From an uncultured Heliobacteriaceae bacterium (GTDB lineage Bacteria > Acidobacteriota > Blastocatellia > RBC074), in the NCBI GenBank assembly GCA_964631865.1, contig CAZWAK010000015.1:89-64088 (forward strand): a stretch of DNA of 64,000 nucleotides, in the 5' to 3' direction. Shown piece by piece: positions 36,377 through 64,000 of this stretch. The first letter of the stretch is position 1. The number at the start of each line of letters is the position of its first letter. The position numbers and the translations under genes were made by a program. Below the pieces are notes generated by a model, which was given only the letters and a program-made list of their open reading frames with translations, ran no database searches and was not told where the DNA came from.

Positions 36377-37824
36377 AAGAAGCACGAGCAGAAAAGCTTC
36401 CGAGCCTGTTAGAAGACGCGCGGGTCGCAGCGGCGGCGCTGTCTGCGTACGACTCCAATTTGGTGGAAGAATCGTTGGCGCGCGTAACGACCGAGTTGGG
36501 TTGGAGCGACGACCGCGGCCCGTTTGGCAAGGTGATTCCGGCGCGCGCGCGCGTGCTGGTCAAACCCAATCTCGTGCTGCACGAAAATCAAGGGCCGTGG
36601 GGCATGGAACCGGTTGTGACGAATCTCGCGCTGATCCGTGTGGTCGTGGAAGCCGCGTTGCGCGCCGGGGCGGCAGAAGTTTTGGTTGGCGATGCGCCGT
36701 TGCAGGGCTGCGATTTTGAGCGCCTTTTGCGCGTGACAGGGATGGCCGAATGGGCCGCGCAGTTGATGCAACGCGAGCCGCGCTTCAAAGGCATCCGCGA
36801 CTTTCGCCGCACAACCTGTGTGTTTGTGAACGGCGTGCGACAGGCCAGCGAAGGCTTGCAGACGGAAGATCATTTCACCCTGTTTGATTTGGGCGCGAAC
36901 AGTCTGCTGGAACCGATCACGAATGACCGCGCGCCGTTTCGCGTTACCTGTTACGACCCGCGTTTGCTGGCACGCACGCACGCGCCGGGACGGCATCAGT
37001 ATCTGGTTGCGCGCGAAATCGTCGAAGCCAATGTCGTCATCAATTTGCCCAAGCTGAAAACGCATAAAAAAGCCGGCATCACCAACGCGCTCAAAAATCT
37101 GATTGGGATCAACGGCAACAAAGAATATCTGCCGCATCATCGCGTCGGCGGAACAACGGCAGATGGGAGTGGCGGTGACTGTTACCCCAAACGCAATCCG
37201 CTCAAACGAGCGATTGAATATGCCTCTGACCGCGAATATATGACCCCGTCGTTCAGCGCCGCGCGTGCCTGGCACAGCGTCGGGAAACAGTTTGATCGAG
37301 CGGCGCGTTTGCTCGGCGATCAACTCGGCGTGGAAGGGTCGTGGTCGGGTAACGACACGATTTGGCGCACCTGTTTAGACCTCAATCGCATTCTGTTGTA
37401 TGGCCGTGCGGACGGCACGATGAGCGACGAACCGCAGCGCCAGATATTGCATGTCGTGGATGCGGTGGTGGCCGGGCAGGGCGATGGCCCGTTGGCTCCC
37501 GAACCGCTGCCGCTGGGGCTGCTTTTGGCGGGACAGAATGCCGCCGCCGTAGATTGGGTGGGTGCGTTTTTGTTGGGCTACGAACCAGAGCGGGTTCCTC
37601 TAACCCGCGAGGCCTTTGGGAATTTTCCCTGGCCGCTTACCACCTTCCCCGCGATAGAGGTCAGGTTCCTGAGGGGGTGGAGGAAACACGAAAAAGCTTT
37701 CGAAGCAGGGGGCCTTACCTTGCCAGTTAAGCATCCCATTGGCTGGCGTGACGCTGCACGCTCCGCTTCGAGAGAGGATGAAACTATTTATGCTGAAGAA
37801 GTTGAAGCAAGTGACTTTGGGTAG
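36373..37824 (+). CDS. DUF362-domain protein
   Basis: ARVLVKPNLVLHENQGPWG ... TNLALIRVVVEAALRAGAAEVLVGDAP is a DUF362-like core. AAGGAG RBS. The start overlaps the previous stop (ATGA). Confidence 0.6.
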   Translation: MKEARAEKLPSLLEDARVAAAALSAYDSNLVEESLARVTTELGWSDDRGPFGKVIPARARVLVKPNLVLHENQGPWGMEPVVTNLALIRVVVEAALRAGAAEVLVGDAPLQGCDFERLLRVTGMAEWAAQLMQREPRFKGIRDFRRTTCVFVNGVRQASEGLQTEDHFTLFDLGANSLLEPITNDRAPFRVTCYDPRLLARTHAPGRHQYLVAREIVEANVVINLPKLKTHKKAGITNALKNLIGINGNKEYLPHHRVGGTTADGSGGDCYPKRNPLKRAIEYASDREYMTPSFSAARAWHSVGKQFDRAARLLGDQLGVEGSWSGNDTIWRTCLDLNRILLYGRADGTMSDEPQRQILHVVDAVVAGQGDGPLAPEPLPLGLLLAGQNAAAVDWVGAFLLGYEPERVPLTREAFGNFPWPLTTFPAIEVRFLRGWRKHEKAFEAGGLTLPVKHPIGWRDAARSASREDETIYAEEVEASDFG

Positions 37825-45330: not shown

Positions 45331-47742
45331 ATGAAAGCTTGTATGACTTATATGAAGAGGCATTTGGTAATTTTTGTGGCCGTGCTGACCGCAGCATTGA
45401 TGGGGGTGAATTGTGGGGCGCTGGGCAAAGGAGCTGGCAGCACGCTAACGGAAGCGGAGGTCGAAGCCATTGCGAAACGCATGGCTCCCAACCTCGCGGC
45501 TGCCGGGAATGACCCCGAACTCCCGCGCGTTTTTCTCAACACCGATTATGTTCCCCCAACCGGCAGAACGATTGCGGTCGGGGCCGGCGGCGATTTTCAG
45601 TCCGCCATCAATCAAGCCCAACCGGGCGACATTATTACTTTGCAAGCCGGTACCAGCTATACCGGCAATTTCACCCTGCCTGCCAAAACCGGGAATGGTT
45701 GGATCGTGATTCGCACCTCTGCGCCGGACAGCAGTCTGCCCGCACCGGGCATACGGATGACTCCGGCCTATAGCAGCTTGTTGCCGAAGCTGATTACCCC
45801 GAACAGCAGTCCCGCGCTGGAAGCTCTCGATGGCGCGCATCACTATCGCATTATCGGAGTGGAATTCGCCCAGGCGACGGGCGTTGAGCTGACCTTCAAT
45901 CTGGTGGCCTTTGGGGACGTCCAAAACTCCCTCGACCGCATGCCGCACAATTTGATTCTGGATCGGGTGTACATTCACGGCAATCCCACGACCAAGCTGC
46001 GTCGTGGCGTGCGGCTCAACAGCGCCACCAGCGCCGTTATTGATTCGTACATTTCGGATTGCAAGGACATTGGCTTTGATTCGCAAGCCATTGGTTCCTG
46101 GAACGGCCCCGGCCCTTTCAAGGTCGTCAACAACTATCTGGAAGGCGCGGGCGAAAACATCATCTTCGGCGGCGGCGATCCGCAGATCGCGAACCTCGTG
46201 CCGTCGGACATCGAATTTCGGCGCAACCATTGCTTCAAACCGCTCACGTGGCGTCAGGAAGACCCCAGTTATGCGGGTCGTCCCTGGAGCGTGAAGAACA
46301 TTCTGGAACTCAAAAACGCGCAACGGGTGTTGATTGACGGCAACATTTTTGAGAACAACTGGACGAATGCGCAGAACGGCTACGCGATTCTCTTTACCGT
46401 GCGGAATCAAGACGGAAGTGCGCCCTGGTCGGTGGTGCAGGACGTGACCTTCACCAACAACATTGTGCGCAGTTCCGGGGGCGGCTTCAATATGCACGGA
46501 ACGGATAACCTGCAACGAAGCGTGTTCACGCGGCGCATCCGCATTGCCAACAATCTGCTCGTGGACATCAGCCGCCAGCGGTGGGCCGGCAACGGAACAG
46601 GCTTTCAGCTTTATGGTGGCCCCCACGAAGTGACGATTGACCACAACACCGTTCTGCACGACTACACGATCATCGCAACGGCAGATGTGCCGAGTGAAAA
46701 CTTTGTCTTTCGGAACAACTTATTCCCCCACAACGAGTATGGCGTCGTGGGCGATAATCGCGGCACCGGAAACTCAACGATCAATTACTATTTCCCCTCG
46801 GCCATCTTCGTCAAGAATGTGCTGGCCGGCGGGACAAGCGCGCTCTACCCGCCGGATAACTTCTTTCCGACCACCTTGGATGACGTGCGCTTTGTGGATC
46901 GCAACGGCGGCAATTACCGCCTGGCCGCGAACAGCCCATATAAAAACGCGGGAACAGATGGCAAAGACCTGGGCTGCGACTTCGATGCGTTAGAAGCCGC
47001 GCTGGTCCGCAATATCACCACCGCCTACAGCGTCTCGGCGGCCAGCTACAGCGCCAACGCCCCGCTCGCGGCGGAATCTATTGTTTCCGCTTTCGGGACG
47101 GGCCTGGCAACCGGTACACAGGCGGCCATGACCACCCCGCTTCCGACGACGCTGGCGGGCACGACGGTCAAGGTTCGAGACAGTGCCGGAACCGAACGTC
47201 TGGCCGCGCTGTTTTATGTTTCTCCCACGCAAGTGAACTATCAAATCCCGGCGGGAACCGCCGCCGGAACAGCGATTGTCACCATGACGAGTGGGAACTC
47301 TATCGTCGCTACGGGCGCGCTGCAGATCACCTCTGTGTCTCCTGGTCTCTTCACGTTTGAAGCGACCGGACGTGGGGTAGCGGCAGGTGAATCCGCCCGC
47401 TTCAGGGGTGGTGTAAAACAAGCCGAAGCGCGGCTGGCCCGCTTTGATGCGACCCAGAACAGATGGATTCCGATTCCCGTGGACCTGTCCTTCACTTCCG
47501 ATCAGGTCTTTCTGATCCTCTATGGCACAGGCATCCGCGCGCGCAATCCAAATGGAACCGTCACGGCTCAGGTTGGCGGCGTCGCTTGCCAGGTGACTTA
47601 TGCCGGAATCCAGTCCACCAATGTGGGATTGGATCAAGTGAATATTCTTTTGGCCAATAGTTTGGCGGGGCGTGGTGTGGTGGATGTGGTCTTCACGATT
47701 GACGGCGTGACGGCCAATACAGTTCAGGTCACGATTCAATGA
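45331..47742 (+). CDS. Secreted right-handed parallel beta-helix (pectate-lyase-fold) protein with Solibacter-type C-terminal domain; candidate polysaccharide lyase/depolymerase
   Basis: Signal peptide MKRHLVIFVAVLTAALMG. Central region is rich in beta-helix-like repeats (NNIV.., NNLL..). C-terminal ~215 aa (..SAASYSANAPLAAESIVSAFGTGL ... LFYVSPTQVNYQIPAG ... VSPGLFTF..) match the paralogous C-terminal domain abundant in Solibacter usitatus. The track ORF start at 44755 is an over-extension; GGAGGGG RBS before ATG 45331. Confidence 0.72.
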   Translation: MKACMTYMKRHLVIFVAVLTAALMGVNCGALGKGAGSTLTEAEVEAIAKRMAPNLAAAGNDPELPRVFLNTDYVPPTGRTIAVGAGGDFQSAINQAQPGDIITLQAGTSYTGNFTLPAKTGNGWIVIRTSAPDSSLPAPGIRMTPAYSSLLPKLITPNSSPALEALDGAHHYRIIGVEFAQATGVELTFNLVAFGDVQNSLDRMPHNLILDRVYIHGNPTTKLRRGVRLNSATSAVIDSYISDCKDIGFDSQAIGSWNGPGPFKVVNNYLEGAGENIIFGGGDPQIANLVPSDIEFRRNHCFKPLTWRQEDPSYAGRPWSVKNILELKNAQRVLIDGNIFENNWTNAQNGYAILFTVRNQDGSAPWSVVQDVTFTNNIVRSSGGGFNMHGTDNLQRSVFTRRIRIANNLLVDISRQRWAGNGTGFQLYGGPHEVTIDHNTVLHDYTIIATADVPSENFVFRNNLFPHNEYGVVGDNRGTGNSTINYYFPSAIFVKNVLAGGTSALYPPDNFFPTTLDDVRFVDRNGGNYRLAANSPYKNAGTDGKDLGCDFDALEAALVRNITTAYSVSAASYSANAPLAAESIVSAFGTGLATGTQAAMTTPLPTTLAGTTVKVRDSAGTERLAALFYVSPTQVNYQIPAGTAAGTAIVTMTSGNSIVATGALQITSVSPGLFTFEATGRGVAAGESARFRGGVKQAEARLARFDATQNRWIPIPVDLSFTSDQVFLILYGTGIRARNPNGTVTAQVGGVACQVTYAGIQSTNVGLDQVNILLANSLAGRGVVDVVFTIDGVTANTVQVTIQ

Positions 47743-48059
47743 TCGTGACCTAAACAGGAAAGAAGGAGGTTCAACCGTCAAAGAGACAAGGTTTGCATAA
47801 GCTCGCGATGCGATGGACTGGCAGGGGAAACTCAATAGGTGAACCGCCCAGTGTCAGCAGTTTCCCCGCCAGTCCGCAGACGTGAAACGGATGGGACGTC
47901 TGTGCCCCACTTTCTCCTCTCGCACTTTACTTTGTCGTCGGCGAACCCCGACGCGCCCCAACGCGCTACGGCAAAGGGAGTGAAAGACGGGAATGCTGAA
48001 ACGGACGAGCGGCAGAAAGTGGAGCGCGTTTCTGCCCTAAGACAAGAAAGAACCTCACA

Positions 48060-48749
48060 ATGGCGACAGATTATTACCGCGTTAGCAATGTCGTCCGAAG
48101 CAATATAGATAGCTTCGGCCTCGTAAAAACTATTTATGATCTATTTTACAAAATAGCCAATCGTATTTGGCTGTTTCGAGTCTTGAAATGCATGGTAATT
48201 AGCAAAGTTGACCCAAACTATCTGAAAAGTGCCGGTCAATATCAATATCTCTTTCTTGATACAGAGATGCTTTATAAGTTCGCGCAACGCCCAGAGTACG
48301 ATCTTTCGGAAGCATTTTTGCGCCACGCCGAAGAGCGCGGCGACGAATGTTACGCCATTCTGGATGGAGATACGTTAGCGAGCTATGGCTGGTATTCCAA
48401 TCGCCCTGTCAACGTAGGTTTTGAAGGTGACGAGGGAGAAGGAGAGACTCTGCGCCTGCATTTCAATGACCGATACATCTATATGTATAAGGGCTATACG
48501 CACACCGCCTATCGCGGACAGCGCCTGCATGCTATCGGGATGACGCACGCCCTGGAAGCGTATTTGAAGCGCGGCTTCAAAGGGTTGGTTTCTTATGTCG
48601 AGGCCAACAATTACCGCTCCTTGAAGTCTGTCTACCGGATGGGCTATCAGGACTTCGGCAAAATTTCTATCTTCAGAATTTTGGGTAAGTATCTGATCTA
48701 CAACAGCAAGGGCTGCAAAGAGTATGGATTTAAAATGGAAGTACTTTGA
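48060..48749 (+). CDS. GNAT-family acyltransferase in a visibly AT-richer segment
   Basis: YRGQRLHAIGMTHAL resembles the GNAT motif A (Q/R-x-x-G-x-G/A). Local GC is clearly lower than the flanks. Confidence 0.55.
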   Translation: MATDYYRVSNVVRSNIDSFGLVKTIYDLFYKIANRIWLFRVLKCMVISKVDPNYLKSAGQYQYLFLDTEMLYKFAQRPEYDLSEAFLRHAEERGDECYAILDGDTLASYGWYSNRPVNVGFEGDEGEGETLRLHFNDRYIYMYKGYTHTAYRGQRLHAIGMTHALEAYLKRGFKGLVSYVEANNYRSLKSVYRMGYQDFGKISIFRILGKYLIYNSKGCKEYGFKMEVL

Positions 48750-48898
48750 CTAAATACAGTGTAAGTGAAACTCCCCGATGATTTTCTGCCCCATATCTTT
48801 CTGGAAAAAGATAAATTACAGGGCGATATGAAGTAGAAGATTAACTCTGCAAAATACGTTAGAAGTTAGCTTATACTAGACGAAATGAGGTAATCACT

Positions 48899-49957
48899 AT
48901 GTATTCGAACACCACACCAGAAGGTAATGGAGGTCAACCCACCCAGACTTCTATTGAAATCTTTGCCACTTGTCCGCAATCGAGTCAGGTGCCGAAAGAA
49001 ACTTATCTCAATCACGTGATCGAGGTCGCCCAATGGAGCGAGAAATATGGCTGCAAAGGCATTCTGGTTTACACCGACAACTCGTTGGTAGACCCCTGGC
49101 TGGTTTCGCAGGTTATCATCGAAAACACCCAGACCCTGTGCCCACTGGTTGCTGTCCAACCCATTTACATGCATCCCTACACCGCTGCCCGGATGTGCGC
49201 TACTTACGGGTATCTCTACAATCGCCAGATTTATCTGAATATGCTGGCGGGGGGATTCAAAAATGACTTGTTGGCCTTGAATGACCCGACACCGCATGAC
49301 CAACGCTATGAGCGGATGGTGGAATATGTGGAAGTCATCAAGCGGCTGCTGGCCAACGACTTTGGCGTGAGTTACAGCGGCGAATTCTATACTGTTGATA
49401 AATTGCGCATGCGACCACCGCTGCCGCCGGAACTCTTCCCCGGTATTCTGGTTTCAGGTTCTTCTGAGGCTGGATTGGCGGCGGCCAAAGCCATTGGCGC
49501 GACGGCGGTCAAGTATCCGAAACCGCCGGGCGATTACGAAAATGATCCGCCGAACGAAAACCTCAACGCTGGCGTGCGGGTCGGGATCATCGCGCGGGAC
49601 AATGCGGATGAAGCCTGGCGCGTCGCGCACGAACGCTTCCCCGAAGACCGCAAAGGCGAACTGGCCCATCAAATGGCCATGAAAGTTTCCGATTCGGTCT
49701 GGCACAAACAACTCTCGGACTTAGGCAAGACGACGGAAAACAATCCGTACTGGTTGACGCCTTTTCAGCATTACAAAACCTTCTGCCCATATCTGGTCGG
49801 CAACTACGCGACGGTTGCGGCAGAAGTCGCCCGCTACATTGCGCTGGGCTTTCAAACCTTCATCGTAGACATTCCGCCGAGCGAAGAAGAGTTGTACCAC
49901 ATGGACATTGTGTTCCAACAAGCTGCCGCGCGCCTGACGCTGAAGGAGGCTGCGTGA
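48899..49957 (+). CDS. LLM-class (luciferase-like) flavin-dependent oxidoreductase, secondary-metabolite-associated subtype
   Basis: TIM-barrel LLM blocks (IEIFATCPQS.., GVRVGIIARDNADEAW). Stop overlaps the start of the adenylation gene (ATGA), i.e. translational coupling. GAGGT RBS. Confidence 0.75.
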   Translation: MYSNTTPEGNGGQPTQTSIEIFATCPQSSQVPKETYLNHVIEVAQWSEKYGCKGILVYTDNSLVDPWLVSQVIIENTQTLCPLVAVQPIYMHPYTAARMCATYGYLYNRQIYLNMLAGGFKNDLLALNDPTPHDQRYERMVEYVEVIKRLLANDFGVSYSGEFYTVDKLRMRPPLPPELFPGILVSGSSEAGLAAAKAIGATAVKYPKPPGDYENDPPNENLNAGVRVGIIARDNADEAWRVAHERFPEDRKGELAHQMAMKVSDSVWHKQLSDLGKTTENNPYWLTPFQHYKTFCPYLVGNYATVAAEVARYIALGFQTFIVDIPPSEEELYHMDIVFQQAAARLTLKEAA

Positions 49958-51567
49958 TGAGTTCATTATTACAACAGTTGGTTACGAACCAGGCGGAGCA
50001 GCGCCCGGAAGCCACCGCCATCGTCTACAAACAGGAGCGCCTGACCTACGGCGAGTTGGAAGCGTCGTCCAATCGGTTGGCACGGCTGCTGAAAGAAGCG
50101 GGTTGCCAACGCGGCGACCGCGTGGGGTTTCTCATTCCGAAAACGCCCGCGGCCATCATCACGATCCTCGGCATTCTGAAGGCCGATTGCGCGTATGTGC
50201 CGCTCGATCCTTCAAGCCCCGCGCCCCGTTTGGAAATGATCGTGGATGCCTGCGCGCCGCGCTTCATCATTGCGGGCGGCTCGGTCACGTCGTTGCTTGA
50301 TGAAGTGATGGCGGATGAGTTGCGTCGCAAAGGCACGGCGATTGGCTGGATGGGCGAAGGCAAAGGCGAAGGCCACAACTTCAAAGTGCAATTTTCGCGC
50401 GCCGACTTGAATGGCTACGACGGTGCTGCGCTGGATTACCAAAACACCAGCAGCGATGCGGCCCATATCCTTTTCACGTCGGGTTCAACCGGCGTGCCGA
50501 AAGGCGTGGTGATTACGCACGCCAATGTGTTGCCGTTCATCAATTGGGCCGTGAATTATTTCGGCACACAAGCAGGCGAGAAGATTTCCAGTCATCCGCC
50601 GCTGCACTTCGATCTTTCGACCTACGACATCTACGGCACGCTGTCGAGCGGCGCTGAGTTGCACATCGTGCCGACGGAATTGAATCTGCTGCCGCACAAA
50701 CTCGCGGACTTCATTCGCAACTCGGAATTGACGCAGTGGTTTTCGGTGCCTTCGGTCTTGAACTTTATGGCGAAGGCCGATGTCGTGAAGCAGGATGATT
50801 TTCCCACGCTCAAACGGTTGATGTGGTGCGGCGAAGTCTTTCCGACGCCACCGCTGATCTACTGGATGCAACGGCTGCCGCGCGTGCAATTCACGAACCT
50901 CTACGGCCCGACCGAAGCGACGATTGCCAGCAGTTACTACACCGTGCCTGAATGCCCGGCGAACGAGCGCGTAGACATTCCCATTGGCTTGCCGTGCGAC
51001 GGCGAAGAGTTGGTCGTGCTGGATGAAGAATTGAAGCCGTTGCCGCCGGGCGAAATCGGTGATCTGTACATCGCGGGTGTGGGCTTGAGTCCGGGTTACT
51101 GGCGCGATGCCGAAAAGACGAACGGCGTGTTTATTCGTCGTCCCGGCAGTTCTGATCCGAATGACCGCATTTACAAAACGGGCGATCTGGCCAAGCTCGG
51201 TGAAGACGGCCTCGTGTACTACCTGGGACGTGCGGATTCGCAAATCAAGAGTCGCGGCTATCGCATTGAGTTGGGCGAAATCGAGACGGCCTTGAATGCG
51301 CTCAATGTTACGGAAGAATGTGCCATCGTGGCCATCAACACGGGCGGCTTTGAAGGCGTGGCGATTTGCTGCGCGTATGTGCCGCTCCCTGATGCCGACG
51401 TAACGCCGACGCGATTGCGTGCGGATTTGAGCAAAGCGTTGCCGAGTTACATGCTCCCGGCGCGTTGGATGCAGTTCGAGCGGTTGCCCAAGAATGCCAA
51501 CGGCAAGATTGATCGCAAAGTGCTGCGCGAACAATTCCAACAAGAAGCGCAAGGCACGGCGAGTTAA
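49957..51567 (+). CDS. Stand-alone NRPS-type adenylation (A) domain protein
   Basis: Full set of A-domain cores: LFTSGSTGVPKGV (A3), NLYGPTE (A5), YKTGDLAK (A7), GRADSQIKSRGYRIELGEIE (A8), LPKNANGKIDR (A10). No condensation or thioesterase domain. Confidence 0.85.
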   Translation: MSSLLQQLVTNQAEQRPEATAIVYKQERLTYGELEASSNRLARLLKEAGCQRGDRVGFLIPKTPAAIITILGILKADCAYVPLDPSSPAPRLEMIVDACAPRFIIAGGSVTSLLDEVMADELRRKGTAIGWMGEGKGEGHNFKVQFSRADLNGYDGAALDYQNTSSDAAHILFTSGSTGVPKGVVITHANVLPFINWAVNYFGTQAGEKISSHPPLHFDLSTYDIYGTLSSGAELHIVPTELNLLPHKLADFIRNSELTQWFSVPSVLNFMAKADVVKQDDFPTLKRLMWCGEVFPTPPLIYWMQRLPRVQFTNLYGPTEATIASSYYTVPECPANERVDIPIGLPCDGEELVVLDEELKPLPPGEIGDLYIAGVGLSPGYWRDAEKTNGVFIRRPGSSDPNDRIYKTGDLAKLGEDGLVYYLGRADSQIKSRGYRIELGEIETALNALNVTEECAIVAINTGGFEGVAICCAYVPLPDADVTPTRLRADLSKALPSYMLPARWMQFERLPKNANGKIDRKVLREQFQQEAQGTAS

Positions 51568-51588
51568 ATCGAAGCGGGAGGGTTGCAC

Positions 51589-52545
51589 TTGAACATACTA
51601 CTGGTGGGCGAAGAATCGGCAGGCACGCAAACACTGAAGATGCTGGCGAACAGCGAGCATAAGTTAGTGGGCGTGATGGCCTCGGCGACTCGACAAGCGA
51701 CGGGCGGGATGACGCTGTGGCAGTTCGCTGAAAAGCAGGGCTGTCGCACGTGGCCGGCGGCGCTGGTGAAAGATCCGGCGTTTGCCGAGGTGGTCAGGGC
51801 GGAACAAGTGGATTTGTTGCTCAACGTGCATTCGCTCTTTGTGATTAAGGGGGAGATTGTGGCTGCCCCGCGTATTGGCAGTTTCAATCTACATCCCGGC
51901 CCGCTGCCGCGTTACGCCGGACTGAACGCGCCGAGTTGGGCCATCTATCACGACGAAAAAGTTCACGGCGTCACGCTGCACCGCATGCTCGCCGGAATTG
52001 ACACAGGCACTATCGCGTATCAGGCGCTCTTTGACATCGAAGCGCGCGACACTGGGTTTTCGCTGAGCGCGAAATGTATCCGCGCGGGGTTGGAGTTGAT
52101 CAAACAGTTGCTGGCCACAGCCGCTGTTGATCCACAGCGAATCCCCGCGCTTGAGCAGGACTTCACGGAGCGGCAATACTTCGGCAAAGAAACACCGGAG
52201 GACGGTTGGCTCGCGTGGTCACGTCCGGCGCGCAGGATTCACAACTTTGTGCGTGCGGCGGATTACTCCCCGTTTACCTCTCCCTGGAAAACCCCACGTT
52301 CCAGACTGGGAGGCGAAGAAATCGGTTTTGTGAAAACCACTCTGACCGGACAACCGTGCGCTGTGCCGCCCGGCACTATCGGGTCGGTGCTCGGCACGCA
52401 AGTGCAGGTAGCCTGTGCGGATCAATGGTTGGCGGTCGAACGAGTGCTACACAATGGCAAGCCCGCTCCGGCGGCGACTGTACTCAAACCGGGCGAACGG
52501 CTCGTGGGGAAGGAAGAACTCGAATTTCATAACGAACACAAATAA
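51589..52545 (+). CDS. Formyltransferase-family protein (Fmt/ArnA-N-terminal-like)
   Basis: SFNLHPGPLPRYAGLNAPSWAIYHDEKVHGVTLHRMLAGIDTGTI corresponds to the formyl_trans_N active-site region (N..H..SLLP.YRG-type). TTG start at 51589 or 51583 after GGGAGG. Confidence 0.7.
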   Translation: MNILLVGEESAGTQTLKMLANSEHKLVGVMASATRQATGGMTLWQFAEKQGCRTWPAALVKDPAFAEVVRAEQVDLLLNVHSLFVIKGEIVAAPRIGSFNLHPGPLPRYAGLNAPSWAIYHDEKVHGVTLHRMLAGIDTGTIAYQALFDIEARDTGFSLSAKCIRAGLELIKQLLATAAVDPQRIPALEQDFTERQYFGKETPEDGWLAWSRPARRIHNFVRAADYSPFTSPWKTPRSRLGGEEIGFVKTTLTGQPCAVPPGTIGSVLGTQVQVACADQWLAVERVLHNGKPAPAATVLKPGERLVGKEELEFHNEHK

Positions 52546-52557
52546 GGAGTAAGTCAA

Positions 52558-52824
52558 ATGACAAATAACGCTGTCACACACGAACAAATCATGCGATTGC
52601 TGGCCGACCGGGTACATATCGAAGCCCCGTCGGTGGACACCGATTTGATGGACTCAGGCTTGCTCGACTCGCTCACGCTGGTCGAGTTGATGAGCAGCCT
52701 GGAAGAAGAGTTTGGCATTGCCATCTCGTTCGACGAAATCGAATTAGACAATTTTCGCTCGGTGGCGCGCATCACGGACTTTGTGCGCGAGCGCAGTGGC
52801 GTCATGGAATTGGCGGTGGCTTAA
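52558..52824 (+). CDS. Acyl/peptidyl carrier protein
   Basis: 88 aa. Phosphopantetheine attachment motif LMDSGLLDSLTLVELMSSLEEEFG. AAGGAG RBS. Confidence 0.8.
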   Translation: MTNNAVTHEQIMRLLADRVHIEAPSVDTDLMDSGLLDSLTLVELMSSLEEEFGIAISFDEIELDNFRSVARITDFVRERSGVMELAVA

Positions 52825-52885
52825 CTCCACACGCCGTGCCGCGCCCCCTGCTTGAGCGAACGACATTCAAGGGAGAAAAACGACT

Positions 52886-53302
52886 ATGCAGTTACAGCAA
52901 AAACACACAAAGCCAACCTTTCGGGCGGAGCGCGAGTTCGGTCTGCTGGTGGGGGCCGTGCTGCTCCTGTTGGGCAGTTGGTGGCTTTATCGCGGACATT
53001 GGCCGACCGTTGCCAAAGTGTTCGCCGGACTTAGTTCGGTCTTGATTCTGTTTGGCGCTTTGTTCCCCAAGGCGCTGGTGCTGCCCAACCGCGCCTGGAT
53101 GGGCTTAGCCAAATGGATTTCTTTAGTCACGACCCCGATCATTCTCGGATTAGTCTATTTCTTAATCATTATGCCTATCGGCGTGGTGAAGCGGTGGTCG
53201 GGTTGGGACCCACTACGCCGTCGCGCGCCTGCCGCCACTTCGTACTGGACAACCTATAACGCGCGGCAACGTGACCCGCAACATTTTGAAAAGATGTTCT
53301 AA
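52886..53302 (+). CDS. SxtJ-family small membrane protein
   Basis: 138 aa, 3-4 TM helices. Composition and position typical of SxtJ homologues, which accompany carbamoyltransferases. Confidence 0.55.
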   Translation: MQLQQKHTKPTFRAEREFGLLVGAVLLLLGSWWLYRGHWPTVAKVFAGLSSVLILFGALFPKALVLPNRAWMGLAKWISLVTTPIILGLVYFLIIMPIGVVKRWSGWDPLRRRAPAATSYWTTYNARQRDPQHFEKMF

Positions 53303-53320
53303 CTTCAGGAGAAAACTTAT

Positions 53321-53479
53321 ATGTCAAGATTAAGCGTCGTTGGTGAACTTTGGCAGTTCATGAAGCACAACAAAAAATTCTGGCTGGCCCCGATTGTCAT
53401 TGTTCTGGTGACGATTGGCGTGCTTCTGGCAGTGGCCGGAAGCTCCGCGTTGGCTCCATTCATCTATACACTCTTTTAA
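53321..53479 (+). CDS. SxtK-like/DUF5989-type micro-membrane protein (52 aa); too short for the ORF track
   Basis: atg at 53321 after AGGAG. Translation MSRLSVVGELWQFMKHNKKFWLAPIVIVLVTIGVLLAVAGSSALAPFIYTLF, a single TM. Confidence 0.5.
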   Translation: MSRLSVVGELWQFMKHNKKFWLAPIVIVLVTIGVLLAVAGSSALAPFIYTLF

Positions 53480-53480
53480 T

Positions 53481-53566
53481 CAGCTATCAGCTATCAGCCA
53501 TTAGCCATCAGCTAATGGCTGATAGCTAATGGCTAATAGCTAATAGCTGATAGCTAATGGCTAATA
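53481..53566. repeat. Heptanucleotide tandem array (12 units) forming a long imperfect palindrome
   Basis: CTATCAG CTATCAG CCATTAG CCATCAG, then the reverse-complement units CTAATGG CTGATAG CTAATGG CTAATAG CTAATAG CTGATAG CTAATGG CTAATAG. Ends 9 nt before the carbamoyltransferase RBS. Confidence 0.85.
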
Positions 53567-53581
53567 GGAAGGTTTAGTTTT

Positions 53582-55507
53582 ATGACCAGTATTCTGGGAA
53601 TCTCTGCGTTTTATCACGATTCTGCGGCCTGCCTCGTCGTTGATGGCGAGATCATTGCTGCTGCACAGGAAGAGCGCTTCACCCGCGTCAAGCACGATCA
53701 TCGCTTCCCCGGCAACGCTGTGATGTACTGTCTCAAAGAAGCAGGCATCACGCCGGAGCAAATTGATTACGTCGGCTTCTACGATAAGCCGCTGCTCAAA
53801 TTCGACCGCTTGCTGGAAACCTATCTGGATTACACTCCGGCAGGCTTCGTGTCGTTCCTCAAATCCATGCCGATGTGGATGAAGGAAAAGTTGTGGGCAC
53901 CCGATTTGATCCGCACCGATTTCGCCAAAGCTCTCGGCGCAGAAGATGATCGCGCCGCGCGCAAGATGGCGAAAACATTCAAATGGAAGCTGCTCTTCGG
54001 CGATCATCACGAGAGCCACGCGGCCAGCGCCTTTTATCCTTCGCCGTATGAAGAAGCCGCCGTTCTCACGCTCGATGGCGTCGGCGAATGGGCGACCAGT
54101 TCGATTGGGATTGGGCGCGGCAACGAATTGACAATGCTCAAGGAATTGCGCTTCCCCGACAGCCTCGGACTGCTCTACAGCGCGTTTACTTACTACACGG
54201 GCTTCAAGGTCAACAGCGGCGAATACAAAGTCATGGGACTGGCTCCGTACGGCGAACCTAAATATGTTTCGTTGATCAAAGACAAAGTGGTGGAAATCTG
54301 CGACGACGGCAGCCTGCGCATGAATCAGGACTATTTTGAATACAGTCAGGGCTTGCGCATGACGAACAACACGTTCGCCAAACTCTTCGGCGCTCCCGCG
54401 CGTGAACCGGAATCGAAGGTCACACAACGCGAGATGGATTTGGCGCGCAGCGTGCAGGAAATCACCGAAGAAGCCGTGATGAAGATGGCGGAGTTTACGC
54501 GCAAGGAAACCGGCCTGAAGCGGCTTTGTATGGCGGGCGGCGTGGCGCTGAATTGCGTGGCCAATGGCAAGCTCTTACGCAAAGGCATCTTTGATGACAT
54601 CTGGATTCAACCGGCGGCAGGTGATGCCGGCGGTGCGCTCGGCATTGCGCTGGCAATCTGGCATCGCTATCTCGGCAAAGGTCGCACCAGCCCGGAAAGC
54701 CAGGGGACGTGGGTCTCGTCGCGTTCGTATGCCAATGGTGTTCCATTGCCTTACGCCGACAGCATGAAAGGCTCCTATCTCGGTCCGAAAAATTCGGAAG
54801 AAGAGATTGAGCGATACCTCAAAGCGAACAATTATCCCTACACCAAATACAGCCGCGAAGAATTGCCGCATGCCGTAGGCAGGTTGCTGGCTTCAGAAAA
54901 AGTCATCGGCTTGCATCAAGGCCGCATGGAATTTGGCCCGCGCGCGTTGGGCGGTCGCAGCATCATCGGTGACGCCCGCTCTACCAAGATGCAATCCATC
55001 ATGAATCTGAAGATCAAGTACCGGGAAAGCTTCCGCCCGTTTGCGCCGAGCGTGCTGCGGGAACATGTGGCTGATTGGTTTGATCTGAATACTGACAGCC
55101 CGTACATGCTGTTGGTGGCCGATGTGCGCGAGAACCGTTGCCGCCAGATGACGAGAGACGAAGAAGAACTCTGGGGCATCGAGAAGCTAAATGTTGTGCG
55201 CTCGGAAATCCCGGCGGTCACGCACGTGGATTACTCGGCGCGCATTCAAACCGTGCGCCACGACGTCAATCCGCTCTACTGGGAAATCATGGAAGCATTT
55301 CGGAAACTCACCGGCTGCCCTGTGATCGTCAACACCAGCTTCAATGTGCGCGGCGAACCGATTGTTTGTTCACCCGAAGACAGCTATCGCTGCTTTATGC
55401 GCACCGAGATGGACGCATTGGTACTGGAAACGTGCGTGTTAGAGAAAAAAGATCAGCCTGAATTCAAAGATAAGACCGATTGGCGGTCAGAATTCACGCT
55501 CGACTAA
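53582..55507 (+). CDS. NodU/CmcH-family O-carbamoyltransferase
   Basis: MTSILGISAFYHDSAACLV.. Carbam_trans_N and Carbam_trans_C. 641 aa. Confidence 0.9.
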   Translation: MTSILGISAFYHDSAACLVVDGEIIAAAQEERFTRVKHDHRFPGNAVMYCLKEAGITPEQIDYVGFYDKPLLKFDRLLETYLDYTPAGFVSFLKSMPMWMKEKLWAPDLIRTDFAKALGAEDDRAARKMAKTFKWKLLFGDHHESHAASAFYPSPYEEAAVLTLDGVGEWATSSIGIGRGNELTMLKELRFPDSLGLLYSAFTYYTGFKVNSGEYKVMGLAPYGEPKYVSLIKDKVVEICDDGSLRMNQDYFEYSQGLRMTNNTFAKLFGAPAREPESKVTQREMDLARSVQEITEEAVMKMAEFTRKETGLKRLCMAGGVALNCVANGKLLRKGIFDDIWIQPAAGDAGGALGIALAIWHRYLGKGRTSPESQGTWVSSRSYANGVPLPYADSMKGSYLGPKNSEEEIERYLKANNYPYTKYSREELPHAVGRLLASEKVIGLHQGRMEFGPRALGGRSIIGDARSTKMQSIMNLKIKYRESFRPFAPSVLREHVADWFDLNTDSPYMLLVADVRENRCRQMTRDEEELWGIEKLNVVRSEIPAVTHVDYSARIQTVRHDVNPLYWEIMEAFRKLTGCPVIVNTSFNVRGEPIVCSPEDSYRCFMRTEMDALVLETCVLEKKDQPEFKDKTDWRSEFTLD

Positions 55508-56727: not shown

Positions 56728-58521
56728 ATGTACATCCTCGGTATTTCTGGACATCATCGCAACGCATCTGCTGCGCTTATCAAAGACGGGCGGCTTATTG
56801 CTGCCATTGAGGAAGATAAGTTAGTACGTGTCAATCATATTGGCATTGCTCAATCGGGCGGACTGCCTTATGCCGCGATTGGCTATTGTTTGGAAGCAGC
56901 GGGCATCGGAATTGATGAAATAGATTACGTCACATATTATCAAAAGCCGCGCCGCTTGTTGCAACGACAACTACGCTTCAGCGAGCAGTTCAAGCCAGGG
57001 AATGGCGCTGGCTCCGAAGATCACCAAGCGGCCAGTGTAAATGAATTCCACGACCGCCTGAAAACACTGCACTTGACCCGGCGTTTGTTGGGACAACGGG
57101 CCAAAGTAATCGCGGTAGATCATCAACTGGCGCACGCGGCCAGCGCCTTTTATTTATCAGGCTTTGAGCGCTCCGCCGTCCTGGTACTTAGTGGGCGCGG
57201 CGATTACATTTCCATTGCTGTCGGCATCGGCGAGGGGCGCAAAGTGCGCATTCTCAAACGCATCGAATTTCCGCATTCGCTCGGTTTGGTCTACAGTCTG
57301 ATGACAGAGCACCTGGGCTTTAGTGCGGGTGGTGGCGAACACAACACGCAATGGCTCAGCACCACAGGCGAACCGGAATTTCTCGCCCCCTTTCAGGAGA
57401 TGATTAAGATTTGCCCCAATGGTATGCCATCGGTGGACACCTCCTTTTTTACTCCTTCTTTGCAAGCCCCTGATGCTTTTTCAGAGAAGTTTTATAGTCG
57501 GTTCGGCGATCATTCCCGTCGTCACCATCATCGCTTCAATGGCAGTGCAAAGAAGCGTTCGTGGACAGAGTTGGTGGGAGAGATGACTGGACGTCAACAC
57601 CTCTCGCTGCCCAGCAACAGCTATCGCCGCAATGTGGCGCACAGTCTCCAACAACATCTCGAACAAGTCGTGCTGGCCTTAGCGGAAAGCATCCGCCACG
57701 AGTACAAAGTAGATGCCTTATGCCTGGCCGGTGGCGTAGCACTCAACAGTTTGATCGTCGCTCGACTGGAGCGCGAAAGCGGTTATCAACATCTTTTTGT
57801 CCAGCCTGCTACGGGGAATTCCGGGTGCAGCATCGGCTCCGCGCTTTTCCATTGGCATCATCAACTTGAACAAGGGCGACCGGAAGCGTTGGAACATGTC
57901 TTTCTCGGCCCTGAATTTTCTGACCAGGAAATCAAACCCGAACTAGACAATTGTAAATTAGCTTATCGCTACATTACTTCAGAAGAGAAGTTATTGGATG
58001 AGATCGTGAACTTACTACATCGCGGCAACATTCTTGCTTGGTTTCAAGGGCGTGCAGAGTTTGGCCCGCGTACTTTGGGGGCGAGAAGTATCCTGGCCGA
58101 TCCAACCTTGGATTACACCAAAGAGAACTTGAACTTATTCGTCAAGCATCGGGAAGCTTATCGCCCCTTTGCGGCGTCAGTCCCTGAAGAACGGGCGGCG
58201 GAATTTTTTGAGAATTGTGGATCGCTGTCGCGCTTTTTGCTGACCGTGTCGCAAGTCAGAGAAGACAAACGTCATTTGATTCCAGCCGCGTGCTTTGCCA
58301 ATGGAAAGGCGCGTGTTCATATCGTCAGTCGTAAGACCAACCCGCTGTTCTGGCGCTTACTCAATAAGTTTGGGGAAAAGACAGGGGTTCCAGTATTAGT
58401 CAATACTTCCTTTAATTTGTTCGGAGAGCCGATTGTTTGCACGCCCCGCGAAGCCGTGCGAAGCTTGTACTGCTCCGGACTGGATGCGTTGGTAATTAAC
58501 AATTTCCTGATTCAGAAATAA
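56728..58521 (+). CDS. NodU/CmcH-family O-carbamoyltransferase (second paralog)
   Basis: MYILGISGHHRNASAALIKDG.. 597 aa. Confidence 0.88.
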   Translation: MYILGISGHHRNASAALIKDGRLIAAIEEDKLVRVNHIGIAQSGGLPYAAIGYCLEAAGIGIDEIDYVTYYQKPRRLLQRQLRFSEQFKPGNGAGSEDHQAASVNEFHDRLKTLHLTRRLLGQRAKVIAVDHQLAHAASAFYLSGFERSAVLVLSGRGDYISIAVGIGEGRKVRILKRIEFPHSLGLVYSLMTEHLGFSAGGGEHNTQWLSTTGEPEFLAPFQEMIKICPNGMPSVDTSFFTPSLQAPDAFSEKFYSRFGDHSRRHHHRFNGSAKKRSWTELVGEMTGRQHLSLPSNSYRRNVAHSLQQHLEQVVLALAESIRHEYKVDALCLAGGVALNSLIVARLERESGYQHLFVQPATGNSGCSIGSALFHWHHQLEQGRPEALEHVFLGPEFSDQEIKPELDNCKLAYRYITSEEKLLDEIVNLLHRGNILAWFQGRAEFGPRTLGARSILADPTLDYTKENLNLFVKHREAYRPFAASVPEERAAEFFENCGSLSRFLLTVSQVREDKRHLIPAACFANGKARVHIVSRKTNPLFWRLLNKFGEKTGVPVLVNTSFNLFGEPIVCTPREAVRSLYCSGLDALVINNFLIQK

Positions 58522-62339: not shown

Positions 62340-63452
62340 ATGAACATTCGCTTTGCCGAAGAACAAGACCTTGCCGCCGTGGCCCGCTTCAACAGTCGTT
62401 TGAAGGCCGGGGGCCGCGAGGAGGAAATGCCTTTGGATCCGGCCTTGCCCGGCGAAGCGCGTTACCGCCCCGCAGGCTTTCCGTTGTATCGTCGTTTGAT
62501 TATTGCGGAGGATGGACAGGAAGTGCGCGCGGCGATGCTGCTGTGTCATCACAACGTTTTCATTCGTGGGGAAAGTCACGATTTCTATTGGACGAAAATG
62601 CCTTTGTCCGAGGGGATCGTCAATGCCAAATATTCGCTGGCGATCATCCACCTGATGAAAAAAGCGCTGGTGCATCACCCGTTTATGATGGGCGTGGGCG
62701 CAGGCACACCGGACTCGGACGGCTTCCGCTTGTTTGCCAGCCTGCGCTGGCGCTACGAAGCCGTGCCGTTTTTTTTCTTCCCCGTCCGCGTCGGCAAGGT
62801 TTTGCGGGGCTTGCGGTATTTGCAGAAAAGCGCCAAGCTGCGCTACGGTGCATTGCTCGGCGCGTACTCTGGTGCGGGCGCAGGCGTGAGCGGGTTGCTG
62901 GCCTTGCGGCGCAAGTTATTGACAAACTTGTCGGGGTATGAGACTTCGGTAGCCGAGACCTTTGCCGACTGGGCGGATGAGGTTTTTACGGCGGCCTTGC
63001 CGGAATACCCGGTGGCTGTTCGGTCGGACGCGGCGGCTTTGAATATCGTCTACCCGCCGGACGATCCGCGCTACATTCGGTTGCGCGTGCGGCGCAAAGG
63101 GCGAGAGGTGGGATGGATGGTTGTCGCCCGAAAACAGATGCAGAACAATCATTACTTCGGCGATTTGCAAGTCGGCACGTTGGTGGATGGGTTCGGACGT
63201 TCCGAAGAGGTGCCCGCCTTGATTGCGGCAGGTCTCAATCACCTGGTCGAAACCGGCGTGGACCTGATTGTGGCCAACTTTTCGCACGCGGCCTGGGCGG
63301 CGGCGTGTCGCCGGGTCGGGATGTTTGGGGGGCCGAGCAATTATCAAATTTTTGTCTCCCCACAAGGGCCGCCGCTGCTGGAAGCCGCTTGCCCGTTAGA
63401 CCAACTCCACATCGCGCGCGGGCACAGCGATGGCATGGATAACCTGATTTGA
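62340..63452 (+). CDS. GNAT-superfamily acyltransferase-like protein (370 aa, possibly tandem GNAT/FemAB-like folds)
   Basis: Weak GNAT-like blocks. Followed directly by another GNAT gene. Function inferred from context. Confidence 0.5.
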   Translation: MNIRFAEEQDLAAVARFNSRLKAGGREEEMPLDPALPGEARYRPAGFPLYRRLIIAEDGQEVRAAMLLCHHNVFIRGESHDFYWTKMPLSEGIVNAKYSLAIIHLMKKALVHHPFMMGVGAGTPDSDGFRLFASLRWRYEAVPFFFFPVRVGKVLRGLRYLQKSAKLRYGALLGAYSGAGAGVSGLLALRRKLLTNLSGYETSVAETFADWADEVFTAALPEYPVAVRSDAAALNIVYPPDDPRYIRLRVRRKGREVGWMVVARKQMQNNHYFGDLQVGTLVDGFGRSEEVPALIAAGLNHLVETGVDLIVANFSHAAWAAACRRVGMFGGPSNYQIFVSPQGPPLLEAACPLDQLHIARGHSDGMDNLI

Positions 63453-63470: not shown

Positions 63471-64000
63471 CATGAAGCCCATCCGTCCTTTTGTGCGAGA
63501 CGATATTCCGCAGGTCGCAGACCTGCACCGCCGTGTCTTCAAGATCGGTGGCAAAGCTTTGCAGCAACCGATCTCAGCGCGTTTGGTGCAGGAATATGCG
63601 GATTACTTCGAGGCCATCTTTTTTCAGAATCCCTGGTACGACGACGCCTTTCCTTCGCTCGTCTCGCAAGACGCCACGGGGAAAGTCACAGGCTTTCTGG
63701 GGGTACTGCCGCGTTGGATGCACTGGCAGGGGCGACGCCTGTATGTCGCCATCAGCAGCCAGTTCATCGTCGAGCCAGATCAACGCGCGATGGGCGCGGG
63801 CGTAATGCTCTCGAAAGCCTTCCTTTCCGGGCCGCAAGACCTTTCGCTGACCGATGAAGCGAATGCCATCTCGCGCAAACTCTGGGAGGGATTGGGTGGT
63901 GTGACGTCGGTGTTCCACAGCCTGCATTGGACGCGGCTGTTGCGTCCCAGCCAATACGCGGTTTCGTTTCTCGCGTCAGGGCTGGGCGTGGAGAAGCTGG
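63471..64000 (+). CDS. GNAT-family acyltransferase (continues beyond the window)
   Basis: QRAMGAGVMLSKAF matches the Q/R-x-x-G-x-G/A acyl-CoA-binding motif. ORF still open at the window end. Confidence 0.55.

Follow-up and report, generated by a model that had tools for sequence, protein, structure and literature searches.

A formyltransferase, an adenylation enzyme, a flavin oxygenase and a free carrier protein as a candidate donor module in an acidobacterial exopolysaccharide locus

What is a complete adenylation enzyme of the type used by nonribosomal peptide synthetases (NRPS) doing in the middle of a polysaccharide locus? The question is raised by a 64,000-nucleotide stretch of contig CAZWAK010000015.1, here called the window, whose nearest relatives are metagenome-assembled genomes of Blastocatellia and whose host is a Blastocatellia-like acidobacterium. 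Open reading frame (ORF) listing and hidden Markov model (HMM) scans revealed, at 48899-52824 on the plus strand, four tightly packed genes for a luciferase-like flavin oxygenase (LLM), an adenylation enzyme (A), a formyltransferase (FT) and an 88-aa carrier protein (CP). This cassette lies mid-array in a one-directional Wzx/Wzy exopolysaccharide (EPS) locus of ~42 kb, which extends from ~21.4 kb to beyond 64 kb. With a probability of about one half, we read the four proteins as a free-standing module resembling NRPS initiation, set in a polysaccharide locus, that would tailor glycine on the carrier and donate it to the EPS. A preliminary description of this DNA had placed five plus-strand ORFs in the region, and the ORF listing confirmed them:

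48060..48749, plus strand, weak GNAT-like ORF (PF00583, E 1e-4)
48899..49957, plus strand, LLM-class flavin-dependent oxygenase, 352 aa (PF00296, E 1e-28)
49954..51567, plus strand, stand-alone NRPS-type adenylation enzyme, 536-537 aa (TIGR01733, 382.5 bits against a cutoff of 317.4)
51583..52545, plus strand, formyltransferase with N- and C-terminal domains, 318-320 aa (PF00551 and PF02911)
52558..52824, plus strand, free-standing carrier protein, 88 aa (PF00550, E 3.5e-12)

The genes for LLM and A are translationally coupled. Their junction reads GCG TGA TGA, the LLM stop codon TGA (49955-57) shares one base with the likely A start codon ATG 49957 (TGATG), and a Shine-Dalgarno sequence AAGGAGG is found 7 nt upstream; the coupling had been proposed before and stands, and the ATGA stop/start overlap given for it is corrected to this one-base overlap. 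Between the A stop and the FT start there are 15-21 nt, depending on the FT start codon. FT most likely begins at TTG 51589 (MNILLVGEES, a start matching that of homologues) rather than at 51583, which leaves 21 nt with a GGGAGGG in between, and the gap between FT and CP amounts to 12 nt. A promoter and terminator scan of 47400-53700 gave counts at or below the shuffled expectation and was uninformative on operon boundaries. When seeds of condensation (C), thioesterase (TE), ketosynthase (KS) and acyltransferase (AT) domains were used in tblastn, no match was obtained in the whole 64 kb, which bears out the claim that A lacks a C or TE partner here, and the window contains no second A or CP.

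Is this gene set more than a chance juxtaposition? One genome per species was scanned with FT, which yielded 268 loci, and all figures on loci given below refer to the best 80 of these 268 (individual loci carry L numbers); gene patterns were obtained by tblastn of the four window proteins against the 80 loci. These belong to Acidobacteriota, Nitrospirota (Nitrospira), Actinomycetota, Alpha- and Betaproteobacteria (Bradyrhizobium, Azospirillum), Gemmatimonadota, Verrucomicrobiota, Chloroflexota (Chloroflexia), Rokubacteria, Calditrichota (Calditrichales), Bacteroidota/Balneolaceae, Planctomycetota (Phycisphaerales) and Trueperaceae, at least 10 phyla in all. The collinear order LLM-A-FT-CP occurs in 34 loci, LLM-A-CP-FT in 6, FT-LLM-A-CP or an FT divergent from LLM-A-CP in another 6, and several loci show other permutations or truncated contigs. 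Also, 4 loci with ample flank (L013, L015, L027, L056) have A-FT-CP without LLM, and FT is found alone in 12 loci, 8 of them with ample flank. At least three of the four core genes are present in ~59 loci; beside the 34 collinear loci, ~20 have them in permuted order. LLM is located directly upstream of A in ~54/80 loci, so that the LLM-A order is nearly fixed, and in 34/80 loci across many phyla FT stands between A and CP, often with overlapping stop and start codons. The recurrence of the four core genes, which a gene-neighbourhood survey had been proposed to reveal, supports the view that LLM, A, FT and CP form one conserved functional unit. Apparent fusions of LLM and A within the family (745-883 aa 'A' ORFs in L056, L063, L070 and L077) are upstream extensions by the ORF caller, LLM and A being separate overlapping genes, and a fusion of the FT and CP genes was rejected alongside. 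In the literature we found neither the four-gene set nor the neighbouring families c6 and c11 (see below) described, only papers on individual precedents.

The A enzyme is complete, as had been stated from the sequence, with a TIGR01733 score above the cutoff and the core motifs A3 (TSGSTGVPKG), A5 (NLYGPTE), A7 (YKTGD), A8 (GRADSQIKSRGYRIELGEIE) and A10 (NGKIDR) readable in the translation. Its ten Stachelhaus positions were located by the landmarks FD(235)xS, (278)VPS, L(299)x(301)GE, N(322)YGPTE(+3, +4) and NGK(517). The sequence of GrsA-PheA served as the reference, for which this mapping yields the published code DAWTIAAICK. The pocket codes, those of the three structures being taken from PDB alignments, are:

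window A: DLYSMCLIAK
A family: DL[FYWH][SA][LMI]CLIAK in 58/61 orthologues, typically DLFSLCLIAK
PDB 4oxi, AlmE to judge from its molecule name: DLHSFCLIAK, 8/10 as in window A
B. subtilis DltA, PDB 3e7w: DLMSMCTVAK, 7/10 as in window A
proline ligase, PDB 6o6e: DLLSLALVCK, 5/10 as in window A

Since Asp235 and Lys517 are kept, a fatty-acyl or aryl ligase is excluded for A, in line with its small-pocket code and with the preliminary description, and an amino-acid activator of the DltA/AlmE type is the supported assignment. Positions 239, 322 and 330 are Y, L and I in the window A versus M, T and V in DltA; from Leu322 and Ile330, which are those of AlmE, and from the aromatic side chain at 239, a pocket of very small size is predicted. 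Copies from Bradyrhizobium, Roseiarcus and Verrucomicrobiota still have the family code at an overall identity of just 32-34%. The substrate of AlmE is glycine, which this enzyme attaches to AlmF (PMC12930378). The near invariance of the code and its 8/10 and 7/10 agreement with AlmE and DltA thus make glycine the probable substrate, with alanine as the main alternative, for which we see a clearly smaller chance. Models of DltA itself scored below their cutoffs (NF003417, 332 versus 476 bits; TIGR01734, 318 versus 560), and the same was true for the exosortase-A-associated ligase TIGR03098 (252 versus 592). Indeed, every equivalog score obtained for the cassette proteins was below its cutoff (DltA, DltC, Fmt, ArnA, SsuD and the XrtA-associated ligase), and TIGR04020 gave no match.

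The carrier protein is recognized by PF00550 with 46.8 bits (gathering score 20.8) and more weakly by the DltC model (38.7 bits, below cutoff). Its phosphopantetheine site is Ser38 in the motif LLDSL, and Ser38, Gly34, Leu44 and Glu49 are invariant in 52/52 orthologues, so the carrier serine on which the preliminary description relied is conserved.

In the case of FT, both Formyl_trans_N (67.7 bits) and Formyl_trans_C (43.5 bits) exceeded the gathering scores of PF00551 and PF02911, and the triad Asn102/His104/Asp140 is invariant in an alignment of homologues, of which 3206 were found at E<=1e-10. The equivalog models of Fmt (TIGR00460, 89.9 versus 201.5) and ArnA (NF005998, 113.9 versus 777) were not reached. 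By sequence, FT is most similar to the formyltransferase domain of ArnA, and the hydrolase domain of 10-formyl-tetrahydrofolate dehydrogenase (FDH) matched with E 1.6e-19. In Foldseek, an AlphaFold2 (AF2) model (pLDDT 89) was as near to Fmt as to the corresponding domain of ArnA and to the FDH hydrolase domain (TM 0.8-0.88), and the fold was dropped as a guide to the acceptor since all three match alike. F domains such as that of LgrA formylate an amino acid tethered to a peptidyl carrier protein (PCP), and for conglobatin, oxazolomycin and rhizopodin this amino acid is glycine (PMC4504003).

A second, divergent FT paralogue with 25-36% identity is present at L008:18503-19495, L009:19784-20659, L011:17877-18746, L046:4262-5998, L063:3516-5450 and L070:609-2318. 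In Blastocatellia it is found beside c11 and c6 GNAT genes. The Gemmatimonadales paralogue is joined to a PIG-L de-N-acetylase domain in one protein, an arrangement by which a sugar would be de-N-acetylated and its amine formylated again.

The LLM is a clear member of PF00296 (100.8 bits versus a gathering score of 27.9). Its best NCBIfam models are those of SsuD, with scores far below their cutoffs (119.5 versus 510 and 116.1 versus 518), and its best PDB match is SsuD as well (E 6e-25). In the alignment with 1m41, Cys54 is replaced by Leu and His228 by Gly, and Arg226 is kept; an SsuD-like desulfonation was set aside because Cys54 and His228 of SsuD are not conserved. TIGR04020 (MupA/Atu3671), which had been proposed along with PF00296 as a model to search the LLM with, gave no match at E<=0.01, and BLAST detected no match to the LLM domains that are inserted in the Ruegeria and Deinococcus proteins described below. 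By these comparisons the window LLM is classed in a distant SsuD-like subfamily, not with MupA/Atu3671. A search of 1.84 billion proteins gave 324 cluster representatives of this subfamily at E<=1e-30, and almost all are stand-alone proteins of ~340 aa. A flavin reductase gene (PF01613) adjoins the cassette in 8 loci, which fits a two-component oxygenase dependent on FMNH2. For the LLM-type monooxygenase (MOx) inserted in the glycine A domains of MtaG and MelG, hydroxylation of the glycine C-alpha has been proposed (PMC11411415). By analogy, alpha-hydroxylation of an N-formyl-glycyl thioester is the reaction that we favour for the LLM, although it is the least certain step of the pathway. The alpha-carbon may owe its reactivity to N-acylation; in MtaG, too, the glycine nitrogen is acylated. 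As the LLM has no BLAST or TIGR04020 match to the MOx type, the parallel with MtaG would be a functional or convergent one, not one of homology or orthology.

If formylation and oxidation occur on the carrier, are there proteins in which these activities are physically joined? By tblastn of FT against plasmids, fused versions were found. In Ruegeria conchae (NZ_CP081104, L082:9001-13617), a single protein of 1538 aa consists of Formyl_trans_N/C, an AMP-binding domain interrupted by Bac_luciferase, and PP-binding, an architecture we abbreviate F-A(LLM)-T, T being the carrier domain. Its gene is located between those of a sugar transferase, a type I polyketide synthase (PKS), a GT2 glycosyltransferase and a phosphopantetheinyl transferase, and its RefSeq label is only 'MupA/Atu3671 family LLM'. 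In Deinococcus actinosclerus (CP029777, L081:7939-18858), a FemAB-like gene precedes those of a stand-alone FT with 41% identity to the window FT, of A(LLM)-T and of a PKS, and the locus adjoins CapK and polysaccharide genes. The interrupted A domains of both organisms carry the code DIL-[ML]GM[IV]WK, the canonical NRPS code for glycine. Since F and LLM are covalently joined to A-T in the Ruegeria fusion, these domains must act there on the tethered residue; the Ruegeria protein and the Deinococcus A(LLM)-T beside a separate F therefore support the tailoring on the carrier that the preliminary description had suggested. Similar matches were obtained on plasmids of Shinella, Parasedimentitalea and Aliiroseovarius.

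In Terriglobales the cassette is associated with an NRPS. There, in 14 loci (L016, L019, L020, L023, L032, L033, L041, L044, L045, L051, L052, L055, L059, L062), a C-A-T-TE protein is encoded at ~800-7200 of each locus, directly upstream of the cassette. This protein shows PF00668, PF00501, PF00550 and PF00975, intact HHIIFDG (HHxxxDG) and GGHSL motifs, and the A code DS[VA]CIAEVWK. A sulfotransferase gene accompanies the NRPS module upstream, and genes for flavin reductase, SGNH, methyltransferase, carbamoyltransferase and NHL-repeat proteins follow downstream. In these loci the cassette resembles an initiation module that has been split up and would start a dipeptide-type product, which supports formylation on the carrier, and the product may be an N-formyl dipeptide-like compound or a peptide-decorated glycan. 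Position 322 of the NRPS code is Glu, a hint that the substrate may be a basic amino acid.

Which proteins might then take the group from the carrier to the polysaccharide? Neighbouring genes were analyzed by all-vs-all clustering, by seed searches over the 80 loci and, for 133 neighbours without any other label in 29 diverse loci with the cassette, by a Pfam scan. The commonest direct neighbour of the cassette across phyla is the family c6 (~372 aa, with weak GNAT signals), which is present in 21 loci, within two genes of the cassette in 13, and adjacent to CP, A or FT in L013, L014, L017, L025, L028, L031, L034, L036, L056, L060 and L072. The tandem-GNAT family c11 occurs in 12 loci and is adjacent in L027, L035, L063 and L070. 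Acetyltransf_6/FemAB-like proteins were detected in 7 loci by seed search, and 7 further proteins by Pfam; CE4 deacetylases are present in 25 loci and glycosyltransferases in 26. Among the neighbours of the 29 diverse loci, GNAT/FemAB, glycosyltransferase, flippase and sugar-transferase families are enriched, and no Condensation or ketosynthase family has even two members among the 133 scanned neighbours. Thus, the cassette usually stands amid polysaccharide genes, beside GNAT-type transferases and CE4 deacetylases, much as its position in the window had led one to expect. The window itself encodes two such candidate transferases:

62340..63452, plus strand, candidate transferase c11, tandem GNAT, 370 aa (no Pfam or NCBIfam match; placed by fold)
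63472..64000, plus strand, running off the window, N-terminus (176 aa) of candidate transferase c6, Acetyltransf_9-like GNAT family (reading frame and tblastn)

An AF2 model of c11 (pLDDT 84.9, pTM 0.83) was used for Foldseek, and the top 50 PDB matches were all N-myristoyltransferases (E ~1e-11, TM ~0.5). N-myristoyltransferases are tandem GNATs that use acyl-pantetheine thioester donors. When PDB sequences were searched with a c11 profile, no match was obtained, and only the fold search placed this family. The c6 fragment is 56% identical to the c6 protein of L006 in tblastn, and c6 gave weak GNAT signals (PF13527; N-myristoyltransferase and AAC(2') in PDB). On contig L083, which encodes an identical c11 protein, c11 is followed by a full c6 gene (6450-7568), a 400-aa ORF and a 579-aa Acetyltransf_6/FemAB-like protein; c11, c6 and the FemAB-like gene thus give the EPS locus no fewer than three candidates for the transfer of N-acyl or aminoacyl groups. 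From their sequences and positions, c11 and c6 are candidate acceptor-side transferases. They are not treated as one family, the hhalign probability of 3.5% being not significant. Of the GNATs that had been said to bracket the region, those at 62340-64000 hold up, as the two genes c11 and c6; the weak ORF at 48060-48749, which is 80% identical in the nearest relative (L086) and has one weak match in 80 other loci, is probably lineage-specific and outside the conserved unit. SGNH enzymes, the other transferases proposed before, co-occur mainly with carbamoyltransferases and were set aside, as they are not consistently linked to the cassette (only 15/80 loci).

These results can be combined into a pathway of four steps. 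In the first, which is well supported, the DltA/AlmE-like A enzyme would activate a very small amino acid and load it as a thioester on the Ser38-phosphopantetheine of CP. Then the Fmt/ArnA-like FT may N-formylate the tethered aminoacyl group with N10-formyl-tetrahydrofolate, like the F domains of LgrA and CongA. In a third step of uncertain chemistry, the FMNH2-dependent LLM might oxidize the tethered residue, most likely by alpha-hydroxylation if the MOx of MtaG is a guide, to give an N-formyl-(2-hydroxy)glycyl or glyoxylyl thioester. In the last step, suggested by the neighbourhood, the tandem-GNAT and FemAB-like acyltransferases (62340-63452, 63472 onward and genes past the window) would move this group to the EPS repeat unit. 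Sugar amines would be the probable acceptors, and the CE4 deacetylases of the locus could expose them; it is from gene context that we infer transfer to the EPS at all. Elsewhere, the same donor module would serve a C-A-T-TE NRPS (Terriglobales) and, in fused form, PKSs (Ruegeria, Deinococcus). In its boldest form, this proposal amounts to an unrecognized glycan modification, in which a split F/A/MOx/T module spread over at least 10 phyla makes an N-formyl-(alpha-hydroxy)glycyl or glyoxylyl thioester, N-myristoyltransferase-like tandem GNATs graft it onto de-N-acetylated EPS sugars, and the module feeds glycans through GNATs, peptides through C-A-T-TE and polyketides through PKSs; we hold this full version to be tentative and rather doubtful.

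Several points weigh against the reading of the cassette as a donor of carrier-tailored glycine. We infer the LLM chemistry, the acceptor and the order of the steps alike, and the window LLM comes from another subfamily than the NRPS-embedded MOx/MupA type. Four loci, as listed above, carry A-FT-CP without LLM. The 7/10 likeness of the code to that of DltA speaks for D-alanine or L-alanine as an alternative, less probable substrate, and the FT fold cannot tell tRNA-, sugar- and phosphopantetheine-linked acceptors apart, with LgrA F outside the top PDB matches. The remaining points concern FT orthologues outside the cassette and the NRPS- and PKS-linked loci, and they are the strength of the two rival explanations that survive best.

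According to the first of these, FT is a normal sugar N-formyltransferase like ArnA, WbtJ or WbkC; its substrate would be an NDP-amino sugar or else an amine on the glycan, perhaps that of the glycyl group once transferred, and only LLM, A and CP would make up the carrier-dependent donor. FT orthologues with ~50% identity exist in the 8 well-flanked loci without A, CP and LLM, and in 6 of these 8 (L042, L046, L048, L050, L054, L068) a 4,6-dehydratase (PF02719) of the PglF/CapD type, the type that acts on UDP-GlcNAc, is encoded; some FT-only loci also have a FemAB-like gene or an FT-PIG-L fusion. Such orthologues beside sugar dehydratases mean that FT could act on a sugar amine and not on the carrier. 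They are nested among the cassette FTs in a (poorly resolved) neighbour-joining tree, no other member of the cassette varies in position as much as FT while the LLM-A order is fixed, and the ArnA domain heads the sequence matches of FT. Nevertheless, the placement of FT between A and CP in 34/80 loci, with its frequent codon overlaps and its spread over many phyla, speaks against this rival, as does the F domain fused to A(LLM)-T in Ruegeria. Furthermore, the downstream C-A-T-TE step in Terriglobales would need an N-blocked starter, as in LgrA (PMC4504003), and no sugar aminotransferase or 4,6-dehydratase was found among the scanned ORFs of the window's EPS array, where the preliminary description had reported a DegT aminotransferase that the scan did not recover. 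A sugar-directed FT thus appears unlikely to us, though it has to be reckoned with.

A second possibility is that a small NRPS pathway, or a hybrid natural-product one, uses the cassette for loading and leads to an N-formyl dipeptide or a similar compound, and that the position of the cassette in the EPS locus is incidental. Homologous cassettes next to NRPS or PKS genes with C domains, which the preliminary description had regarded as the mark of such a pathway, were encountered in the 14 Terriglobales loci (of ~59 with at least three core genes), where sulfotransferase, methyltransferase and flavin reductase genes are also present and where the likely acceptor is the C domain of the NRPS and not a glycan; in addition, the fused analogues adjoin type I PKS genes. 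In the 29 diverse loci scanned, Condensation and ketosynthase families are not enriched among the neighbours, but GNAT/FemAB, glycosyltransferase, flippase and sugar-transferase families are. The window has neither a C, TE, KS or AT domain nor a second A or CP, and its cassette stands mid-array in a co-directional, operon-like EPS cluster whose gene order is kept among Blastocatellia. Even the NRPS- and PKS-linked versions are still found amid glycan-type genes (carbamoyltransferase, SGNH and epimerase in Terriglobales; sugar transferase, GT2 and CapK on the plasmids). We consider an incidental position quite improbable.

Little credence is given to a plain Dlt-like alanylation, in which D- or L-alanine would be loaded and transferred unmodified, with LLM and FT serving unrelated steps. 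DltA HMMs are among the top matches of A (332 and 318 bits), 7/10 code positions agree with B. subtilis DltA and CP matches DltC weakly, but every DltA and DltC score stays below the family cutoff, positions 322/330 are Leu/Ile as in the glycine-specific AlmE and not Thr/Val as in DltA, and no MBOAT (DltB) or DltD match turned up among the neighbours scanned, which cover part of the window ORFs. The strict coupling of LLM and A and the insertion of LLM into A in the analogues argue that the oxygenase belongs to the same pathway. That FT loads formyl directly on the phosphopantetheine thiol of CP, with LLM then oxidizing or transferring the one-carbon unit, is very improbable: FDH hydrolase domains, which act with an ACP-like domain as HypX acts with CoA, are strong matches (E 1.6e-19; TM ~0.8), but ArnA and Fmt match FT equally well or better, and a conserved, pocket-constrained amino-acid A would be left without a role.

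How does a module that tailors glycine on its carrier compare with known systems? A close parallel is AlmE/AlmF/AlmG of Vibrio cholerae, where a stand-alone DltA-like ligase loads glycine on a small free carrier and a separate transferase hands it to a surface glycolipid (PMC12930378). In contrast to the cassette, Alm has no FT or flavin oxygenase, and the sequence likeness of AlmE to the window A is at the family level only. AlmG is an LpxM-type lipid-A acyltransferase, different from the tandem-GNAT/FemAB-like neighbours seen here, and the context is lipid A instead of a Wzx/Wzy EPS; no AlmG-type acyltransferase turned up among the neighbours scanned, in which no search was aimed at the AlmG family. 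D-alanylation by DltA/DltC likewise uses a carrier-dependent aminoacyl donor for a cell-envelope polymer, and its HMMs are among the best matches of A and CP. It differs by the scores below the equivalog cutoffs, by the AlmE-like residues 322/330 of the window A and by the two extra tailoring enzymes of the cassette; no DltB (MBOAT) or DltD partner was matched among the window ORFs scanned, which do not comprise every ORF.

The F-A-PCP initiation modules (LgrA; CongA, OzmO and rhizopodin for formyl-glycine) share formylation, activation and a carrier with the cassette, which in Terriglobales moreover precedes C-A-T-TE. However, the activities of the cassette reside on separate proteins, its FT is nearer to ArnA/Fmt/FDH than to LgrA F, its A is of the DltA/AlmE type and not of the canonical DILQLG glycine type, and the window has no downstream C/KS. 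In MtaG/MelG and in the MOx-interrupted A domains of Ruegeria and Deinococcus, an LLM is physically coupled to a glycine-activating A and a carrier, in Ruegeria and Deinococcus amid glycan genes, whereas the window LLM is a separate protein of an SsuD-like subfamily with no BLAST or TIGR04020 likeness. EPS loci associated with XrtA/PEP-CTERM (EpsH) also have an AMP-forming ligase and a carrier, and the AsnB-like amidotransferase and a GT4 of the window resemble TIGR03108 and TIGR03087; yet the scores are below the cutoffs (TIGR03108, 629 versus 817; TIGR03087, 223 versus 317; TIGR03098, 252 versus 592), and the A here is of the amino-acid type. Most likely, the cassette represents carrier-dependent decoration of the Dlt/Alm type combined with F and MOx tailoring.

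To our knowledge, carrier-dependent decoration of surface polymers is known from a few systems only, namely Dlt, Alm and the tetronate genes of V. cholerae O1, and in no case is the group tailored on the carrier. If the donor-module reading is correct, EPS would carry a new kind of chemical substituent, specified by a conserved cassette that is frequent in soil bacteria (Acidobacteriota and Nitrospira, for example), and this substituent could affect soil aggregates, metal binding, phage or immune recognition and EPS biotechnology. The two uncharacterized tandem-GNAT families would become candidate acyl-carrier-protein-dependent glycan acyltransferases. Also, such loci would have to be read as glycan-tailoring loci and not as 'NRPS-like' secondary-metabolite clusters, which we assume to be the label that mining tools probably give them, and a single donor module would be seen combined with GNAT, NRPS or PKS acceptors.

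The EPS array itself starts with genes for a Wzz-like protein, a tyrosine kinase and Wza, which are followed by GT2, CE4 and heparinase II/III genes and then by UDP-glucose dehydrogenase, Wzx, Wzy, a PaaK/CapK-like ligase and DUF362. Before the cassette come CE4, three GT4, the AsnB-like amidotransferase (XrtA/PEP-CTERM-like), another CE4 and a large ORF with a beta-helix counterpart; 3' of it follow SxtJ, DUF5989, a carbamoyltransferase, SGNH genes and a second carbamoyltransferase. Three of the four CE4 deacetylases attributed to this locus are within the array, at 26583, 37739 and 44342. The fourth, a CE4-DUF3473-GT2 three-domain fusion at 2357-4057 on the minus strand, is located ~17 kb upstream of the array and so outside it.

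Other genes of the array deserve mention in their own right. An SxtJ-like membrane protein (PF19588, 52886-53302), a 52-aa DUF5989 ORF (53321-53479) and a carbamoyltransferase (53582-55507) form a trio resembling SxtJ/K/I of the saxitoxin cluster, which is kept in Blastocatellia relatives (L086). Further 3', a second carbamoyltransferase (56728-58521) and three SGNH/AlgX-like genes are present, and together the carbamoyltransferase and SGNH genes suggest that the EPS is also O-carbamoylated or O-acylated. The PaaK/CapK/F390-synthetase-like ligase at 34883-36376, a second adenylate-forming enzyme in the array, gave weak NCBIfam matches and no Pfam match; its gene is overlapped by the DUF362 gene (36325-37824), and a CapK gene is also found near the Deinococcus F/A(LLM)-T locus (L081). 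The large ORF at ~45400-47742, between a CE4 gene and the cassette, belongs to a family (c18) conserved at the same position in Blastocatellia loci, and its counterpart at L002:4909-6624 has a right-handed beta-helix domain (PF13229); c18 may be a polysaccharide lyase or depolymerase.

Finally, the base composition of the array is uneven. The G+C content is 0.495 at 48-50 kb (48001-50000, with the GNAT-like ORF at 48060 and LLM) and 0.457-0.486 at 56-62 kb (second carbamoyltransferase, an ORF at 58542 and SGNH genes), compared to ~0.57 in the rest of the EPS array, and these stretches may reflect a mosaic acquisition of tailoring genes. An IS66-family transposase gene (L087:10678-11517) is located at the edge of a near-identical JGI contig with the same cassette and carbamoylation block.

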